NCBI RefSeq assembly: GCF_038025025.1 | Contig: NW_027117347.1 | Coordinates: forward strand, 1,843,292 to 1,863,291 | DNA length: 20,000 bases | DNA from: Phyllosticta citribraziliensis | Taxonomy: Eukaryota | Direction: 5' to 3' | Shown here: positions 11,739-20,000 of the stretch, piece after piece | Position numbering within the stretch: position 1 is the stretch's first letter | Layout: every line of letters starts with the position of its first letter | Program-made: the position numbers and the translations under genes | Notes under the pieces: model-generated | Database searches by the model: none | What the model was told of the DNA's origin: nothing | Seen by the model: only the letters and a program-made list of their open reading frames with translations

Positions 11739-14218
11739 ATGGCTTTTCTGAATCGTAGAACTGGCGACGCCAAGCTCAAAACTGCTCCCGACCTCATACC
11801 GTCATCCTCACCAGCGTTTGCGACTCCGCCAGTCAACCCTGCCCGTCCTCTACGAACGGCGCCTATTCCTGCGCCGCCTTCTTTGAAGCCCACCGTCCTC
11901 CCAATCGTCCTTCCACCGGCTTCTCTGAGACCACTGGCATTCAGGACATTCACGAAAAAGCATAATCTCACCATTTCGTCATCTGCGCTCGCAGCACTCG
12001 CTACATTTGTCGGACGACATTGCGGCTCGGGATGGAGGGAAGAGGGACTCGCGGAAAAGGTTTTGGAAGAGGTCGCACGAGCATGGAAAAAAGCCAGCGG
12101 TAGCGTCATCGTTCAAGGAGATGATCCGCTGCTGAAGACCATTCTCAAGACGCTGGAAGGATGTATGGTCGGCGGGCGAGTTGTGCAAGGGAAAACTCCA
12201 ACGCTTTCGCGAGACAGCAGCTTCAAATTTGGTGCCAATGGCCTTGACCCCGGGGCAGTGCCGACACTGGAAAAGCAGGACAGCTTTGGAATAAGTGGCC
12301 TGAGTGTGGGCGAGGAGGACGGAGAGGACGAGAGCAGAGATCCACGCGATTGGATCAAAGTTGTTGGAGCCTACGAGCACCCCAAGATGGTGTACAATGT
12401 CATGAAGAAGCACTTTGATAGGTACGGCGCCCAATTCACTGACAGCATTGAACTCAAGCTAAATATTCCAGATCGACCGCGAAACCCACCCTCTTCCCGC
12501 AGCCCTCTACCAAGACAGAGCTTTTCCGCCAACGATATCACATCATCCATCAGCGCCTATTGCGTAACGAGTCCTTTGCGACTCCCTCATTTGCCGGCAA
12601 CAGGACATCGTCACTCCATCGTACCGATACGGGCTCGGCTTCCTCAACAAACAAAATCACTCCCATCTCCAACCTGCTCGGCCGTCACGGTACCAATCAC
12701 CTCCTCCTGGGATTGCTTGCAGTCTCGCCCACCGGAACCTTGGCTCTCTCAGATCTCACAGGCACCATTGCCTTGGACATCACGCACGCGCGTCCAATCC
12801 CCGACGATGGAGCATGGTATTCGCCTGGAATGATTGTGCTTGTTGATGGCACATATGAGGAGGACTACAGCAATATTCACGCTGGATCAGCCAACGCGCT
12901 TGGTGCGACCGGTGGTGTTGGAGGAACGATTGGAGGGAAGTTCATTGGGTTTTCAATCGGCCATCCACCACCCGAGAAGCGCTCCCTCACACTTGGAACT
13001 CCCGACAGCAACGTCCCAGACGCCTCCACAAGTGCTGCCGTAGGGCCCGCATTTGGCTGGACGGACTTTCTAGGCATGGGCTCTGAACGTGCGACGGGCG
13101 CGAAAATGCGAAGAATCCAAGCACGTCTGCTGGGATCCGAGGCCCCCACAGCAAGTCATACCAAAATCGTCATTGCTGCGGATGTAAACCTCGACAACCC
13201 CCAAACCTTTACCGCTCTTCGCACATTACTCTCTACATACGAGGCTACGCCCATTACCGATTACCCGCTCGCCATGGTCTTCATTGGCAACTTTGTTTCG
13301 ACCGCAGCCATGGCGGGCGTTCCAGGTCACGGCAGCATAGAGTACAAGGAGCACTTCAACGCTTTGGCCTCTGTATTTTCAGACTATCCTCAACTGATTG
13401 CTCGGACCACCCTTGTGTTCGTCCCTGGTGACAATGACGCCTGGCCCAGCTCATTCTCGTCTGGGGCGGCTTGCCCTCTGCCAAGAAAGAACGTTCCCGA
13501 CATTTTCACCAGCCGCATCAAGCGTGTGGTACAAGAAGCGAACAGAGAGATCGGCGGCTCGGAAAAGCGAAAAGAGGGCGAAGTCATCTGGACAAGCAAT
13601 CCAAGTCGACTGACTTGGTTCGGTGTGCAAGGAGAAATGGTCCTGTTCCGCGACGACGTGACAAGCCGGTTACGACGCAGCGCCATCCGCTTCAAGAAGC
13701 CTGAAGAAGAAGAGGACGGTGAGGACGAGGATATGGACCTGGAGGAAGAAGCGCAGCGGCGCCGCAATAGCCGTGAAGCCACAGTTGCTTCCGTGCTGCC
13801 CGAAGACGACGCTGCACCAGCCGACTCAATGGAAGTGGACCAGCCGCCAGAGAACGAGTCGCCATCGCTCACCCACCGTCCAAAGTCTCAGCATCAGCCG
13901 ATTCCCGGGTCGTCTCTTGATTCCGACACCCTCCTTGCTCGCGCGTTAACTCGCACAATCATCTCACAGTCACATCTTTCGCCCTTTCCGCTGCATGTGC
14001 GGCCCGTCCATTGGGACTTTGCGCATACCCTGGGTATCTACCCTCTGCCAACTGCCCTCGTGTTGGCGGACAATGACGCCCCGAGCTTTGCCCTGAAGTA
14101 CATGGGTTGCGCGGTGATGAATCCGGGGAGTATTGCTGACGGGAGGAAAGGTGAGCGATGTCGCTGGGTCGAGTACTGTGTGCGGGAGGGCAAGGGCACT
14201 GTCAGGGTTGTTGATTAA
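11739..14218 (+). CDS. DPB2: DNA polymerase epsilon subunit B
   Basis: Exons 11739-12421 and 12472-14218. Motifs LRPLAFRTFTKKHNL, LFRQRYHIIHQRLLRNESF, ITPISNLLGR, LSDLTGTIALD, FVPGDNDAW, TSNPSRL and QSHLSPFP..RPVHWDF..L.IYPLPTALVLAD. Confidence 0.96.
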
Positions 14219-14390
14219 GTCAAGCATTTGGGGGGGTTTTCACCATCGAGGGGATTTCATGACATTGCAGTTCATATGTCCACTGGTTGACTTCGGCATC
14301 TTGGGCGACGCTTGCAATATTTCCTGGACACATCGGCGCTGCGACGCGCAGCCTGGAGACATGTTGTCACCCAAGAATGAGGAAAGCCGT

Positions 14391-15323
14391 TCAGTCCTCA
14401 TCAGCAACCATGTAGACCTGATCGCCGACTTCCACGCCGTTCTCAAGCAATTCAGCTATTCCCTCCTCATCGTCGTCGTCATCATCCTCGTCCTCTCCGT
14501 CTCCATCTTCTGCGCCCTCACAATTTCCATCGAGTTCCTCTGCTAGATCTGCGCTGATGACTTCTTCGTCGTTATTGCCAAGCTTCTCGCCAAAAACAGA
14601 CCAGGTTATCTTGTCGTCCAGTTTTGCTTGGTCCACATGTTTCCTTTGCAAGCTTCGTCAGATTATATGGCATGCGCGATCCAACTGGTGACTTACCGGA
14701 AGCCCAAGCTCCTCCAGACGATCTACTTGAAGCCGATTGCAAAGATGTGCTCGCCTTCGAGACCAAAAATCTTTTTCAGCTCCTCCGATCTCGAATGTCC
14801 GACGCCGACTCCAGAGTCGAGTTGTTCTCCTATGCGCAACTGTCAGCACAGAAATATTTCTGTGGTGGATGCAATGGATGGCGACGAAATTGATGGGTCC
14901 GAAGTTCTGAACTCACCCAAGCCGATACATCGATGCCGTCAGTCTCAATCATCAGTGTGATTCAAATCGGCGGAAAATTCTTTGCTTTGTCCCTCAGGGA
15001 TGGTCGGATTCTTTGCGGTTTGCAGCTCGACGATCAAATGGCGGTTCCGACCCCACTTGATGTTCAACCACTCCTGCGCCTCTTCATCTCTGACGAATTT
15101 CTAAAGAGTGGCTGGGCTGCCGGAACTAGCATTGGTCGACTCCCATGCATTTGAGCTCCGAGTCGTTCTTGTTCTTGAAGGTGTTCGATTTATCGAGCAG
15201 GCTCGCCAAAGACGGACAAGGATAGTGCGAACTGGCTGCCAACACTAAAGCCTCGAATTCCAGTCTCACGATGCGCACAAGAATGTTTGTGGGAAGCAAT
15301 TTCTCACCGTTTCGGCAGGGCAT
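14391..15323 (-). pseudogene. Degenerate fungal gasdermin-like gene (RCD-1/HET-Q1-like) with acidic C-terminal tail
   Basis: Two recognisable introns: 14916-14830 (GTGAGT..GCTGAC..TAG) and 14696-14644 (GTAAGT..TCTGAC..AAG). Conceptual translation across lesions: ...FKNKNDSELKCMGVDQC*FRQPSH/KFVRDEEAQEWLNIKWGRNRHLIVELQTAKNPTIPEGQSKEFSADLN/..GIDVSA/GEQLDSGVGVGHSRSEELKKIFGLEGEHIFAIGFK*IVWRSLGFRKHVDQAKLDDKITWSVFGEKLGNNDEE...acidic tail. In-frame TAG stops at 15128-15126 and 14725-14723, plus frameshifts near 15100 and 14920-14960. Motif order matches fungal gasdermins as I recall them. The 5' boundary is uncertain. Confidence 0.65.
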
Positions 15324-16119
15324 CTCAGTTCCAGTGCCGACACCCGCAAAATTCGCTTAAACGGAGCAGCTTCCCGCCCCCTCAGGACTTTCGAAGCCGT
15401 AAGGAGACCCGGCGTGCTGAAAGTTTACCGCTCGGCCCAGACATCCGAAGTTGACTCGGCTGCAGGTCGTGGCGGAATGTCTATTTCAGGACGCAGTCAA
15501 CGCGCGCATATCCAAAGAATGAGCGTGATCGACGAGTTCCGGATACATGCATAGCCGCTCTGTCAAGAGTGGGGGATCGAGCCGCTTTGTTGACTGGGGG
15601 CCATCTAATACCTACAGCTATGCAATCCCAAATCCACTTGCTACAGGGCAATAGCACTTTGTGGTCGAAATCTCATCCCCGAAGTACGAAAACCAAGAAG
15701 TAAGGCGTTATCAACTCAATCAATGGTTGAATCATCACCATAGACAGCTACAAAGAAAGGACAATGAACGGGTCTCTCCTGATCGAGCGGTGCCCTCCAC
15801 GCTTCGTGCGCGATTGTAACCTTTGCATGAGCATTCCGTGCAATTGGGAACCAATTATGTCGCTAGCAAAGCAATTCTCGCGAGCTTTAAGCGCCACGGT
15901 TCCAAATGGAGGTAAAAGAAAAAGCGAGAGAGCAATATCCTTGACGGTGGGGCTACAGGGGCGCCTGAAGTTCAGCGCTAACAGTTCTACATTTATTTTC
16001 GCAATCGCGCAAACAATCGGAATGCTCAAGAAAGCGTCATTTTCGATTCTTCGATCCGAGAAGCTCGAATTACCGGAGCACCAAAACGTACACATCAATT
16101 CGAAAGTTCTAGACCAGAG

Positions 16120-19100
16120 ATGCGGTTTCCAGGAGCCCTCAAGCGCGCCCGCGGCTCTGTACGTTCGCACCTTGGTACCATTGACAAAACCACGGAGCGG
16201 GTACTCTCCTTTGCGGAGGAGCTAGCATTCCAGGCCACCGAGCAGACTGATCAGTACGAAGAGACCGGTGATGTCGAGAAACTCCGCCGAGCGATCAATT
16301 TCCTGCAGCAAGCCCTGAACACTATAAGCGAAGACCAAAGGAAACCAATTTTTGAGCGCGACGATTATTTGGGCGAGTTCGTGCACGGAATTTCGCAAGA
16401 CCAATGTCTTGCTATCCGGACCTTGTTCTTTGCAACCGGTGATGCGGCATACCTTCATCATTGCATCAATCAAACCAAGATGCTTGTCGCAGCTTCACCG
16501 AAACCTCCCCGGTCTCTCTTCTTCGAGCTTTGCTTTCTGAGCCGCACCCTTTCTTATCGCTACTTTGCACTTGGAGAAGAAAATGAGAGCGATCGAAGAG
16601 ATGCTCTCGATGCTCTTCGACGCGCCTCATCAGTCCTGCAAAAGGAGCGCAAAAAACTGGATCTCTCAGGTGCGGAGTTGACCACCTTCCAAGAAGAAAA
16701 AGAACTGCTCGACAAGCCGATCGAAATTGCAAAAGGCATATATCTCTACAACCGCGCAGCCAATTTCAAACGCCGGTTCTTCCACTCTGGAGATCTCAAG
16801 GCCTTGCGGTCCGCCCGCTCGTATTTCGCCAGAGCTTTGCAGCTTTTCCCTCCGGCTCATCCAAATTACACAAAATGTGCCGTCAGTGTCGCTGACTGCG
16901 AAGTAAATTATGTCCATGGGACCAACGACATCGCCGGATTGCAACCAGCGCTGAAAGTAATCGATTCCCTTGACGTCACCGGTTCAAGTACCGATGAGTT
17001 TATGGATGCTACGCACACGAAAAGCCTGCTTTACAGAACCAAGTACGATTTCTCATCTGATCCCAAGGACCTTGAGTACTCCATAGCAGCGGCCAAGGCT
17101 GCCGTTGCGATCAGCGCAAAGAGCCGAAACCTACGCATGTTTGCGTTGGAAAACCTTAGCAGCCAGCTTTGTCGTCGTGCTGAAGCCCAGCGATCTTCTG
17201 AAGACATCGATGCCGCGATCGTAGCCGCGAGAAATGCACTTGACGTGTGTTCCGAGGAACGAGTTCAGCGGGCGGAGGCATATGCTAACCTCGGCGCTCG
17301 ACTTGAAATGAAGTACACTCTTTTCGGCGGATCAGAGAACCTAGTGGCTGCTATTGGGCATTCTCGCTTTGCTGTTACCACGTTGCCGGAAAACCACCGA
17401 AAAAGAGCATTGCATTTGCACAACTTGTCGAATGGACTGAGACTTGTCTTTGAGGATTCCGGAAAGGCGGAAGTGCTGGATGAGAGCATTCGAGTGGAGC
17501 GCAATGCGTTGAAAATCGCAGCGAGAGATGATCCCGAAAAGTACATCATGCTGTATGGGTTGAGCCTTTCGCTGGAGCATCGCTTCAGGAAGACCCAAAA
17601 TTCGCAAGACATGAACGAAGCCATGTCAGCAGCAGAAGAAGCGCTAGCCGGGATGCCAAAAGGTAGGCAAATACGGGAACTTTTCCTAGCGGACGACGCC
17701 CATTCAAGGTGGATCGAGCAGGGTGCGGTGTTTTTTTTAGGAGTCACGTTGTATGATGTCTGTTCAATTGAGACTGTGCTGATGAATGTACTAGGAAGCA
17801 CCAGATATCCCATGTGTCTTCACAACCTGGCAAATGTTCTGCACGACAGATTCATGCGGTCGAAGGCGATCTGCGACATTGACCGAGCAGTGAAAGCCGC
17901 TTCCGATGCGATTTCAAGCGGTAGTTCCGATGAGACCGGTGAACTCGTTTACTCAATGACGCTTTCCGCGTGTCTGTTCTCAAGGCATGATATCAGTAGA
18001 GACGTTGCTGACATTGACCAAGCCATCAGTGTTGCGCGCGGTGTCATTCGTAAGTCCGCTTCATTTCCACTAGTAAGGTACTCAAGGATTTGATGGGATT
18101 GATCCAATACTGAAATTAGTTTTACTTCAGAGAAATGTTCTCGATCGCATCCGAAGCGACCCCACTGGTTGAGCGAGCTTGTATTACTGCTTGACCGTAG
18201 GTTCGAGTGTTCGGGCTCGAAAGAAAAACACGAGTATCTTGACCAAGCATTGCAATTTCGAAAGGAAAGCGTGGCCACACTTTCAGAGCATCATCCAGAC
18301 ATGGCCTGGTTTTTATGCTCTCTCGGAAGCCTTCAAGTGAAAAAGAATGAGTTGCTCATAGACGGTGCGAACCAGCGAAAGCCAGGTTTCTTATTGGGTG
18401 CAATCGCGTCATTCCGCCGGGGTTTCAATCAAGCGAACGCCAGTCCCTCAAGCAAAATCTGCAACGGAATGCTGGCCGGCTCCTGCTACATGGCCTTGGG
18501 GAACTGGGAGCCTGCGAGCGAGATCTTATCAGGAAGCGTTCAGCTTTTGCAGCAAGTCAGTCCACTTTCCTTGGACGACAATGATCGTCAGCACCAGCTT
18601 CGGGGTCTTACGGGCCTGTCCACGGAAGCCTGCGTATCTTATCTCATGTTGGGCAAAGTTGAAGCTGCCGCCGAGATTTTGGAGGCTGGCCGAGGAATCA
18701 TCGCCAACATCTCGACAAGACAACACGAAGATCATAAAGCTTTGAAGAGCGCGAGTTTGAGCCTTCACACTCAGTACACCGAGCTTTGTCAGTCATTGTC
18801 GCTGGGCTCGTCCGCCGAGAGAGACGAGGGCCTAGATCTGGTGGCGAAGCGAAACCAGGATCAAGCGAGCCTCGAAAGAATCGAAGAGCGCATTCGTCGG
18901 CTACCGGGTCTGGAGCATTTCAACAAAAGACTTTCGGCTTCGCAGATTCGTCGACTTGCTGAAAGAGGCCCTTTGGTATCCTATTGCACCACAGAGTCTC
19001 GAGCTTTTGCGCTCATCGTCACAACGAAATCAATTAGCTCCTTGCCGTTGCCCGATCTTCTTTGGGACGATGTCGAGAGAAACACACCTCTGGTTACCGG

Positions 19101-19896
19101 AGACAACAGATTGAGTCTTCGGCCGCCGTCGAAACGGTCCGGAGCAAACAAGAAAATGCGAGAATTGCTTGCTTGGCTATGGGACACGGCGGTGAAGCCA
19201 GTGCTCGACCATCTAGGACTAATTCGAAGTGAGGGGGAACGGCTTCACCCTCGATTGTGGTGGGTGACGAGTGGGCCTCTGGGCGTCATGCCTTTGCACG
19301 CAGCCGGTAAAGGCAGCAAGTTCCCACAGGAGAACACGTACGCCCATGTTGTCTCGTCGTACACTGCCACTTTTTCCGCCCTGGCATTCGCTCGACAATG
19401 TCAATCGAAGGTTTCCCGGGCTCAGCCGAAAGTGGCTCTGGTAACCATGCCGAAAACAGCCGCGAGGAGAGACTTGAACACTGCAGCGGAGGTACAAGCC
19501 GTGCGCGATGCTTTTTCAACTTCGGGCACTGGACTGGTTGAGATGTGTCAACCTGCGGCGGCAGACGTCTTGCACCAAGTCCGCGGCGGCAGCATCGACG
19601 TTTTTCACTTCTCCTGCCATTCCGAACCTGATCTCAACGACCCTTCAAAAACATCTTTGCTCTTTGGCTGCGATGCGACCGCCACATCTCCAGATCGACT
19701 TCCGATCCAGGAACTGAGAAAATTCAACGGTGCGACCGACCTGTCGTCCCGCGCGCCGCAACTCGCGTATCTTTCAGCGTGCTGCACGGCGCAGCAGTAC
19801 GATTTGAAACTCCTCGACGAAAACGTCCATTTGGCAGCAGTTTTCCAGGTGATGGGATTTCCGTCCGTGATCGGAACGCTTTGGGAAGCAGATTAG
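16120..19896 (+). CDS. TPR-like repeat + CHAT (caspase HetF-associated) cysteine protease, C-terminally truncated by the telomere
   Basis: Exons about 16120-17662, 17795-18049 and 18131-19896. About 45-aa helical repeats (e.g. LENLSSQLCRR...EDIDAAIVAARNAL; LHNLANVLHDRF...DIDRAVKAASDAI), then EILEAGRGII, LAWLWDTAVKPVLDHLG, RLWWVTSGPLGVMPLHAAG, VVSSYT, the catalytic His in HFSCH (19618-19620), the catalytic Cys in AYLSAC (19780-19782) and GFPSVIGTLWEAD*. The start codon is provisional. Confidence 0.9.
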
Positions 19897-20000
19897 GGTT
19901 AGGGTTAGGGTTAGGGTTAGGGTTAGGGTTAGGGTTAGGGTTAGGGTTAGGGTTAGGGTTAGGGTTAGGGTTAGGGTTAGGGTTAGGGTTAGGGTTAGGG
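19893..20000 (+). repeat. Telomeric repeat (TTAGGG)18, chromosome end
   Basis: 108 nt of perfect TTAGGG from 19893 to the window end, with the G-rich strand running 5'->3' toward the end as expected for a right telomere. Confidence 0.98.

Follow-up and report, generated by a model that had tools for sequence, protein, structure and literature searches.

At the right end of contig C10 (NW_027117347.1) of the Phyllosticta citribraziliensis genome assembly GCF_038025025.1 (here G000; 31.4 Mb in 22 contigs), a ruined gasdermin gene stands beside the gene for a TPR-CHAT protease, and comparison of the two shows that expression of the protease and, to judge by its pattern of change, purifying selection on it went on for a long time once the gasdermin was dead. 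Both genes lie in the 20,000-nucleotide stretch of DNA analysed here, which we call the window (contig positions 1,843,292 to 1,863,291). They are divergently oriented and 738 bases apart, within the limit of 10 kb between gasdermin and protease by which clusters of the het-Q1/het-Q2 type are recognised. An earlier note on this DNA had remarked on the uneven decay of the two genes and had argued that the protease stayed under selection after its neighbour was lost; both points are borne out by the counts given below.

The gasdermin-like gene (14391-15381, minus strand) is, on the evidence of its alignment, a pseudogene in the family of fungal gasdermins (HET-Q1 homologues). It is identical in 201/300 columns to P0121, the intact 299-residue gasdermin of P. 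citrichinensis and its closest intact relative, and Dataset S1 of PMC8851545 counts the proteins P0122, P0124, and P0417, which are 68-74% identical to P0121, among the het-Q1 homologues. P0121 itself has no Pfam match, and no gasdermin was matched when sequences of solved structures were searched with a profile. Structural evidence for a gasdermin fold is weak: the predicted structure of P0121 is of low confidence (predicted local distance difference test, pLDDT, 37), with RCD-1 and GSDMD as the top Foldseek rows at E values of at least 0.24, and in the Atlas it lies near bacterial gasdermin clusters (score 0.93). Frameshift-aware alignment against P0121 reveals that, over 851 coding bases, the window copy has lost its start codon (15381) and carries two nonsense codons (TAG at 15128-15126 and TAG at 14725-14723), six frameshift points (near 15345, 15298, 15113, 15099, 14962, and 14925, with about ten codons deleted at 15298), and two in-frame deletions. 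No open frame for the pore domain survives.

Are these lesions real? We compared positions 13900-19910 of the window with four sequencing runs: X1, possibly from the same strain as G000; X2, a surface metagenome that covers the locus at a depth below 5; X3, from a different study; and X5, which is labelled as another organism and holds several versions of the locus. X1 and X3 are treated as RNA on account of their splice joints alone, since the run records do not say RNA. X1 differs from the window at no letter, X2 matches the pseudogene without a difference over 14419-14872 and 15123-15702, and X3 shows no difference over 14696-14828 and one over 14942-15269; both TAG stops recur in the public runs where they are covered. 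Because X1, X2, and X3 reproduce the lesions wherever they cover them, assembly or sequencing error, which the earlier note had named as a possible source, is excluded. The lesions are real and common to the samples. Repeat-induced point mutation (RIP) was considered as the cause of the decay and ruled out; the G+C content of exon 1 is 0.52 and its TpA/ApT ratio 0.26. The segment 15252-15307, spliced out in X1, was likewise rejected as a true intron: it is coding in relatives (P0121 residues 37 onward align there), and its removal represents cryptic splicing. Just upstream of the lost start, X1 also contains a splice on the plus strand (15399-15450). Since X1 splices are seen on the minus and the plus strand, both strands are transcribed near the lost gasdermin start.

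The protease presents a different picture. Its gene begins at ATG 16120 on the plus strand and runs through three exons as 1,187 codons free of stops and frameshifts, and it aligns as a single tblastn piece with residues 1-1188 of P0001, the 1259-residue P. capitalensis type A protease. The CHAT domain matches Pfam PF12770 above the cut-off (E 1.3e-23, profile positions 2-232 of 289). The catalytic residues are kept, His at 19618-19620 in an F-S-C-H motif and Cys at 19780-19782 in an L-S-A-C motif, and we take them to be a caspase-type dyad. In addition, the model of a relative, P0277 (pLDDT 77), matches SAVED-CHAT and Csx29 with Z 16-17. The Pfam matches to TPR are weak; the relatives P0002 and P0003 are annotated as TPR-CHAT proteins in Dataset S2 of PMC8851545. 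The protease has a CHAT domain with a His-Cys dyad behind TPR-like repeats, and its assignment as a CHAT protein is firm.

Several measures speak for constraint on the protease. In its 3,561 bases, between about 33 disabling lesions (at the rate of the whole gasdermin, 8 per 851 bases) and 54 (at the rate of exon 1) would be expected, and none is observed. Among columns that are constant in three matched intact relatives, 57/483 are changed in the protease vs 45/103 in gasdermin exon 1 (p 2e-12); the intact control P0121 is changed in 10/115. Within the CHAT domain, 11/154 such columns are changed, mostly conservatively. In a quick tree the pseudogene has an end branch of 0.32 vs 0.035 for P0121; in the protease tree the window branch is 0.30 vs 0.33 for P0001, which stands beside an intact gasdermin. 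X1 and X3 both show the two introns of the protease removed, and splicing of the pseudogene also persists.

Run X5 provides a further comparison. A minor version of the locus in X5 (depth about 13) shares frameshifts near 15099 and 15113 with the window, and a major version (depth about 109) is without them. The minor version differs from the window at 67/1,071 letters (6.3%, with 33 gap letters) in the pseudogene region vs 143/4,006 letters (3.6%, with 17 gap letters) in the protease region (Fisher p 2e-4, substitutions only), a contrast in raw letters rather than a ratio of nonsynonymous to synonymous change (dN/dS). Three or more versions of the locus, with depths of about 13, 55-78, and 109-130, are present in X5 across 13900-19910; they may represent strains or species.

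The pseudogene is also not of one age. With derived changes polarised by five outgroups, 60/150 fall on the window side in exon 1 vs 4/126 in exons 2-3 (p 1e-14), and the derived changes of P0121 itself number 5 in exon 1 and 4 in exons 2-3. The step in age is located at gasdermin intron 1 (14830-14916). Protein constraint on exons 2-3 is an unlikely cause, because in the spliced pseudogene no in-frame ATG follows the exon 2 stop until the last residues. Exon 1 shares its state with P0121 at 11 sites vs 6 with P. capitalensis type A; therefore exon 1 split after the P. capitalensis lineage, and long before sequence was last exchanged with the P. citrichinensis lineage. On the simplest reading of these counts, the polymerase-proximal exons would have come later, from a haplotype with an intact gasdermin, and joined an exon 1 that was old, dead, and linked to the protease. 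The mosaic implies either that dead and intact haplotypes coexisted or that introgression occurred, and it points to a 'protease-only' haplotype that existed alongside haplotypes with an intact gasdermin and recombined with them. We note that the age step resembles the narrow divergent block with homogenised flanks described for het genes by Auxier et al. (PMC11138114).

In the strain from which G000 derives, the protease has itself been struck. Telomere repeats are joined straight onto the coding sequence, and this cut is a disabling lesion: Pfam CHAT positions 233-289 are gone, and 71 residues are missing in all. The earlier note's description of the protease as lesion-free is thus correct up to the telomere, but with the cut the gene is almost certainly dead in this strain. 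In the P0277 model the 71 residues form three helices and the last strand, within the range that aligns to solved CHAT and separase domains. Judged from that model, activity of the truncated protease in G000 is very unlikely, and the cut has almost certainly killed it. The junction is confirmed by the spliced protease contig of X1 (18131-19909), which reads into the telomere repeats and hints at transcription running on into the telomere. X3 carries on in frame for about 350 bases past the cut, and the X2 contig departs from the window sequence at 19893. A second assembly under the same species label encodes P0272, which is identical to the window protease at 875/876 positions and has the 71-residue tail, so that the complete catalytic domain lacking in G000 is present there. 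The P0272 gene model begins at an internal Met, and an intact 5' end is not demonstrated for it. By accession number P0272 and the polymerase subunit are one apart, and no gasdermin is annotated between the two; their contig exceeds C10 in length by 22,090 bases. Because this second assembly and X2 and X3 continue past the cut, the cut is strain-specific and recent. About 22 kb would have been lost from this chromosome end in G000.

The simple way to read the C10 end is as a terminal break that was healed. The protease tail was not found elsewhere in G000, either with the tail of P0001 (a weak search) or with P0272, whose matches were confined to C10 (up to residue 877) and C11. Among 11 telomere-flanking 2-kb stretches of G000, one of them at an internal array, the G+C content is 0.32 or lower in 7, and at the C10 end it is 0.53; two other telomere-flanking stretches look as unmutated as the C10 end, and 3 further contig starts are without a telomere. 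De novo telomere addition, or chromosome healing, is a generic process. The C10 end is like it in that unique coding DNA passes straight into the repeats, with a single base in common, and in that the distal part is not found in G000; nothing is distinctive here beyond its falling inside a protease gene.

The same chromosomal position can be followed in relatives. In P. citrichinensis, the intact gasdermin P0121 adjoins the polymerase subunit P0129 (consecutive accessions, contigs of equal length), at the position of the window pseudogene; no protease of this species appeared among the 120 listed of 131 matches of 1046-2985 residues, a search that did not extend to shorter models. In P. capitalensis, each of the six assemblies for which the polymerase subunit is listed also has one listed CHAT protein, separated from that subunit by 11-17 accession numbers. 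These proteins fall into a type A, found in 2 assemblies (P0001 and P0249) beside an intact 301-residue gasdermin, P0416, and a type B, found in 4 (P0004, P0252/P0253, P0254, and P0255). Comparison of annotated gene models, not of DNA, shows that between the two types the proteases are identical at 642/1,254 positions (about 51%) and the gasdermins at 135/252, vs 98-99% for the polymerase subunits. The type B gasdermin is changed in 44/115 invariant columns and lacks the acidic tail. In 3/4 type B assemblies this tail-less gasdermin N-terminus is modelled as fused to the TPR-CHAT protein; the fusion may exist as a single protein, or it may come from merged annotations. Deep haplotypes with a conserved flank, as expected of a het locus, are seen in the 6 P. 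capitalensis assemblies as annotated, and none was seen among the few P. citribraziliensis samples. The two deep P. capitalensis haplotypes and the mosaic pseudogene fit a long-lived polymorphism. The CHAT tree left the window, type A, and type B proteases unresolved, and trans-species polymorphism therefore lacks tree support.

Intact relatives also draw attention to a K-R-G-N motif ahead of the acidic tail. Its Arg is kept in 6/6 aligned full-length intact relatives and is replaced in both degenerate copies, window exon 3 (14391-14643) and P. capitalensis type B. Perhaps this motif marks the position at which the gasdermin is cleaved, for which we regard it as a candidate.

How does the locus compare with known systems? 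According to PMC8851545 (Clave et al. 2022), 353/1,884 fungal gasdermins (19%) adjoin CHAT genes; in Podospora anserina, the CHAT domain of Q2L-6 cleaves Q1-6 and gives barrages; and het-Q is proposed to derive from a two-gene gasdermin-protease cluster. The same paper describes HET-Q2 as thought to be constitutive through loss of its regulatory part, and reports that HET-Q2 left two paralogous gasdermins unprocessed. Dataset S1 of that paper lists CHAT pairs in Corynespora (PSN65156/PSN65155), Aaosphaeria (KAF2009744/KAF2009745), and Pyrenochaeta (OAL53804/OAL53803); these pairs are the closest intact relatives, and the neighbours in the first two are P0002 and P0003. In Aspergillus fumigatus, the validated het gene hetB encodes a CHAT protein of 1,327 residues, present in 22/46 assemblies, and its alternative allele is an unrelated 149-residue open reading frame; Auxier et al. 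2024 (PMC11138114) list the CHAT target as an open question. Like the Q1-6/Q2L-6-type clusters, the window has gasdermin and TPR-CHAT genes side by side, but here the gasdermin is an old mosaic pseudogene that has been outlived by its protease, and the protease of this strain is cut by a telomere. Like the P. anserina het-Q idiomorphs, the window is a haplotype with a protease and without a working gasdermin. However, HET-Q2 (PMC8851545) is an S8 protease domain alone, and the het-Q alleles are unrelated idiomorphs, whereas the window protease is a full TPR-CHAT protein, its dead gasdermin is still in place, and the system is known here from sequence alone. The window family resembles hetB in having a CHAT protein of similar size; the likeness is one of domain and size, and no gasdermin link is established for hetB. 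The use of a CHAT in place of a subtilisin protease, which the earlier note had suggested for an allorecognition locus, is already published for these gasdermin clusters and for hetB. What is new is a long-kept protease beside a mosaic, datable pseudogene, together with a natural set of haplotypes. Among the papers that literature searches listed, none describes this locus in its title or abstract opening; the full texts of the Phyllosticta genome papers were outside this check. A metagenome scan returned 3 gasdermin loci, two of them on contigs shorter than 2.1 kb, and none gave a tblastn match to P0001 or P0272.

Why, then, was the protease kept? We propose a history in three steps, with non-self recognition as the reason for its retention, a combined reading whose chances we put at about even. 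In the first and oldest step, which the comparisons above show, one haplotype lost its gasdermin, and the protease linked to it continued to be expressed and held by purifying selection. In the second, this 'protease-only' haplotype would have persisted for long beside haplotypes with an intact gasdermin, and recombination with one of these near intron 1 would have given it gasdermin exons 2 and 3, which would account for the age step observed there. In the third, very recent and in this strain only, a chromosome break would have been healed by telomere addition; the cut is observed, and the losses of activity and of some 22 kb would have followed. The protease would most likely have been kept for non-self recognition. 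Its TPR array may sense a non-self signal and so free the caspase-like domain, which in turn may remove the acidic C-terminal tail of a clade-matched gasdermin, perhaps at K-R-G-N. Such a gasdermin would be met only after fusion with a strain carrying one, and the meeting would end in death, for which the Q1-6/Q2L-6 and het-Q pairs of P. anserina offer precedents. By analogy with these systems an allorecognition role of the locus is plausible. In its most specific form, the proposal holds that the protease-only haplotype is ancient, pre-dates the P. citrichinensis split, has been held by balancing selection, and encodes a full-length TPR-CHAT protein that kills on fusion with intact-gasdermin strains; we consider this version tentative and, as a whole, rather unlikely.

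A number of observations weigh against the proposed history. Introgression would yield an identical mosaic, and P0121, with 5 changes in exon 1 vs 4 in exons 2-3, has no clear excess of branch length in exon 1. The constraint on the protease was measured without a formal dN/dS, and, with 390 substitutions and 19 indels outside the tabulated set, the protease indels of X5 are unlisted, so that the frame of its minor version may be whole or broken. The window protease retains its whole TPR array, and HET-Q2 is thought to be constitutive after losing its regulatory part. The gasdermin is dead in every P. citribraziliensis sample (G000, X1, X2, X3, and the second assembly, in which no gasdermin is annotated); the earlier note's concern that all strains might share the same dead gasdermin is realised here, but in a tiny sample. 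Among these few samples no haplotype with an intact gasdermin as target was seen, and the complementary haplotype that the earlier note had hoped for, an intact gasdermin with a dead protease, did not appear in any of the runs and assemblies compared. The major X5 versions also carry protease-like DNA, and the intact-gasdermin versions in P. capitalensis type A and X5 come with a protease too. The alternative haplotypes of the het-Q type suggested by the earlier note therefore fare unevenly: the age of the mosaic and the P. capitalensis types A and B fit a long polymorphism, but the haplotypes are not idiomorphs, since the window haplotype holds both genes side by side.

There is also the possibility, real though short of even in our estimate, that the protease was kept for a gasdermin-independent job in its own cell, acting on another substrate or in signalling, and that the mosaic arose from introgression or a one-off recombination with no balancing selection. 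Within the species only dead-gasdermin haplotypes have been seen, hetB is a CHAT gene without a known target (PMC11138114), and the type B protease keeps its His and Cys beside a degenerate gasdermin (44/115 columns changed, no acidic tail). On the other hand, the deep alternative haplotypes of P. capitalensis at the same chromosome end are the pattern of a het locus, and the G000 strain lives without the protease C-terminus, which makes any such job dispensable. Staggered decay, in which both genes were dying unselected and the protease had simply not yet been struck, could draw on the telomere cut in this strain and on the P0272 model with its internal Met and its 5' end not shown whole; it is made improbable by the absence of lesions where 33-54 were expected, by the few and mostly conservative changes in the CHAT domain (11/154), and by the lower divergence of the protease than of the pseudogene from the minor X5 haplotype. 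That the lesions or the telomere junction are artefacts of sequencing or assembly we regard as practically out of the question, given that X1, X2, and X3 repeat the lesions where they cover them and that X1 reads into the telomere repeats; no point in favour of an artefact was found.

The earlier note had also suggested that the protease might act on a gasdermin elsewhere in the genome. G000 has one other gasdermin-like gene, at G000:C11:685,507, with an open 281-codon frame, and action of the window protease in trans on its product is conceivable but quite improbable. Because the C11 copy is identical to P0121 at only 64/274 positions (23%) and has its own CHAT partner, a target elsewhere in the genome is unlikely, and the failure of HET-Q2 to process two paralogous gasdermins (PMC8851545) points the same way. 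The C11 gene lies directly behind its own intact 1,236-residue TPR-CHAT gene and a caspase-domain gene. Searches of G000 with P0121 matched C10 and C11 only, and with the C11 protein C11 only; distant gasdermins may escape both. Across G000:C11:679,000-686,400 (L003, L004, and L007), a Peptidase_C14 gene (E 6e-13), the TPR-CHAT gene, and the gasdermin-like gene stand in a row, all as open frames. From its reading frames, this trio has the appearance of a gasdermin cluster that is intact and includes two proteases of the caspase family.

If the fusion-killing form of our proposal is true, the locus would be a readable intermediate on the way from a gasdermin-protease immune cluster to a heterokaryon-incompatibility gene, and it would provide a case of allorecognition in nature by a CHAT protease whose gasdermin target is identified, paralleled by the derived type B haplotype in P. 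capitalensis. The locus offers natural haplotypes with which to test the origin of het-Q by cluster break-up (Clave et al.) and the question of the hetB target (Auxier et al.): an intact pair in P. capitalensis type A, a protease-only haplotype in P. citribraziliensis, an intact gasdermin in P. citrichinensis, and the degenerate type B. The truncated protease of G000 can be used as a natural null. Should allorecognition tests fail, the locus would be nothing out of the ordinary, a dead immune cluster at a chromosome end that is unstable.

Table. Features of the gasdermin/protease locus and its flanks, in window positions.
Feature	Position	Strand	Remarks
DNA polymerase epsilon subunit B, 3' exon	12452..14218	+	Pfam PF04042, E 1.4e-36; conserved flank, converges on the pseudogene
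Gasdermin exon 3	14391..14643	-	acidic C-terminal tail and stop codon; 78/82 = 95% identical to P0121
Gasdermin intron 2	14644..14696	-	GT-AG, splicing persists; joint in X1 and X3
Gasdermin exon 2	14697..14829	-	41/45 = 91% identical to P0121; one TAG, 14725-14723
Gasdermin intron 1	14830..14916	-	GT-AG, splicing persists; step between old and young sequence
Gasdermin exon 1	14917..15381	-	no start codon, six frameshift points, one TAG; 82/157 = 52% identical to P0121
Cryptic intron	15252..15307	-	joint in X1; removed from ancestral coding sequence in pseudogene transcripts
Divergent intergenic region common to both genes	15382..16119	.	plus-strand GT-AG splice 15399-15450
Protease exon 1	16120..17662	+	ATG 16120; TPR-like helical repeats, weak TPR_1 match
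Protease intron 1	17663..17794	+	132 nucleotides, GT-AG; joint in X1 and X3
Protease exon 2	17795..18049	+	from splice joints and alignment
Protease intron 2	18050..18130	+	81 nucleotides, GT-AG; joint in X1 and X3
Protease exon 3	18131..19893	+	CHAT domain from about 19162; ends after W-E-A-D
Telomere (TTAGGG)18	19893..20000	+	joined straight to coding sequence; provides stop codon 19894-19896; end of contig C10

The locus is preceded in the window by a run of housekeeping genes, recognised by Pfam as encoding a RabGAP-TBC protein, a dCMP deaminase, ATG7, an SHNi-TPR protein, and DNA polymerase epsilon subunit B, the last 97% identical to P. citrichinensis P0129. This polymerase subunit and the protease both group in 90% clusters with proteins that bear the label P. 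citribraziliensis, which marks the source as a Phyllosticta associated with citrus. The gasdermin/protease locus follows this run directly, and the 18 TTAGGG repeats close the contig.

Finally, two other places in G000 bear on its chromosome ends. At the right end of G000:C1 (L015:575-2788), a 737-residue frame that by eye is of NACHT-ankyrin (NLR-type) architecture stops some 105 bases short of the telomere; the DNA there is unmutated, and this too may be an end that was shortened recently at an immune gene. On G000:C6, at about 1,757,830-1,757,863, a telomere-repeat array with AT-rich flanks lies inside a 2.46-Mb contig.

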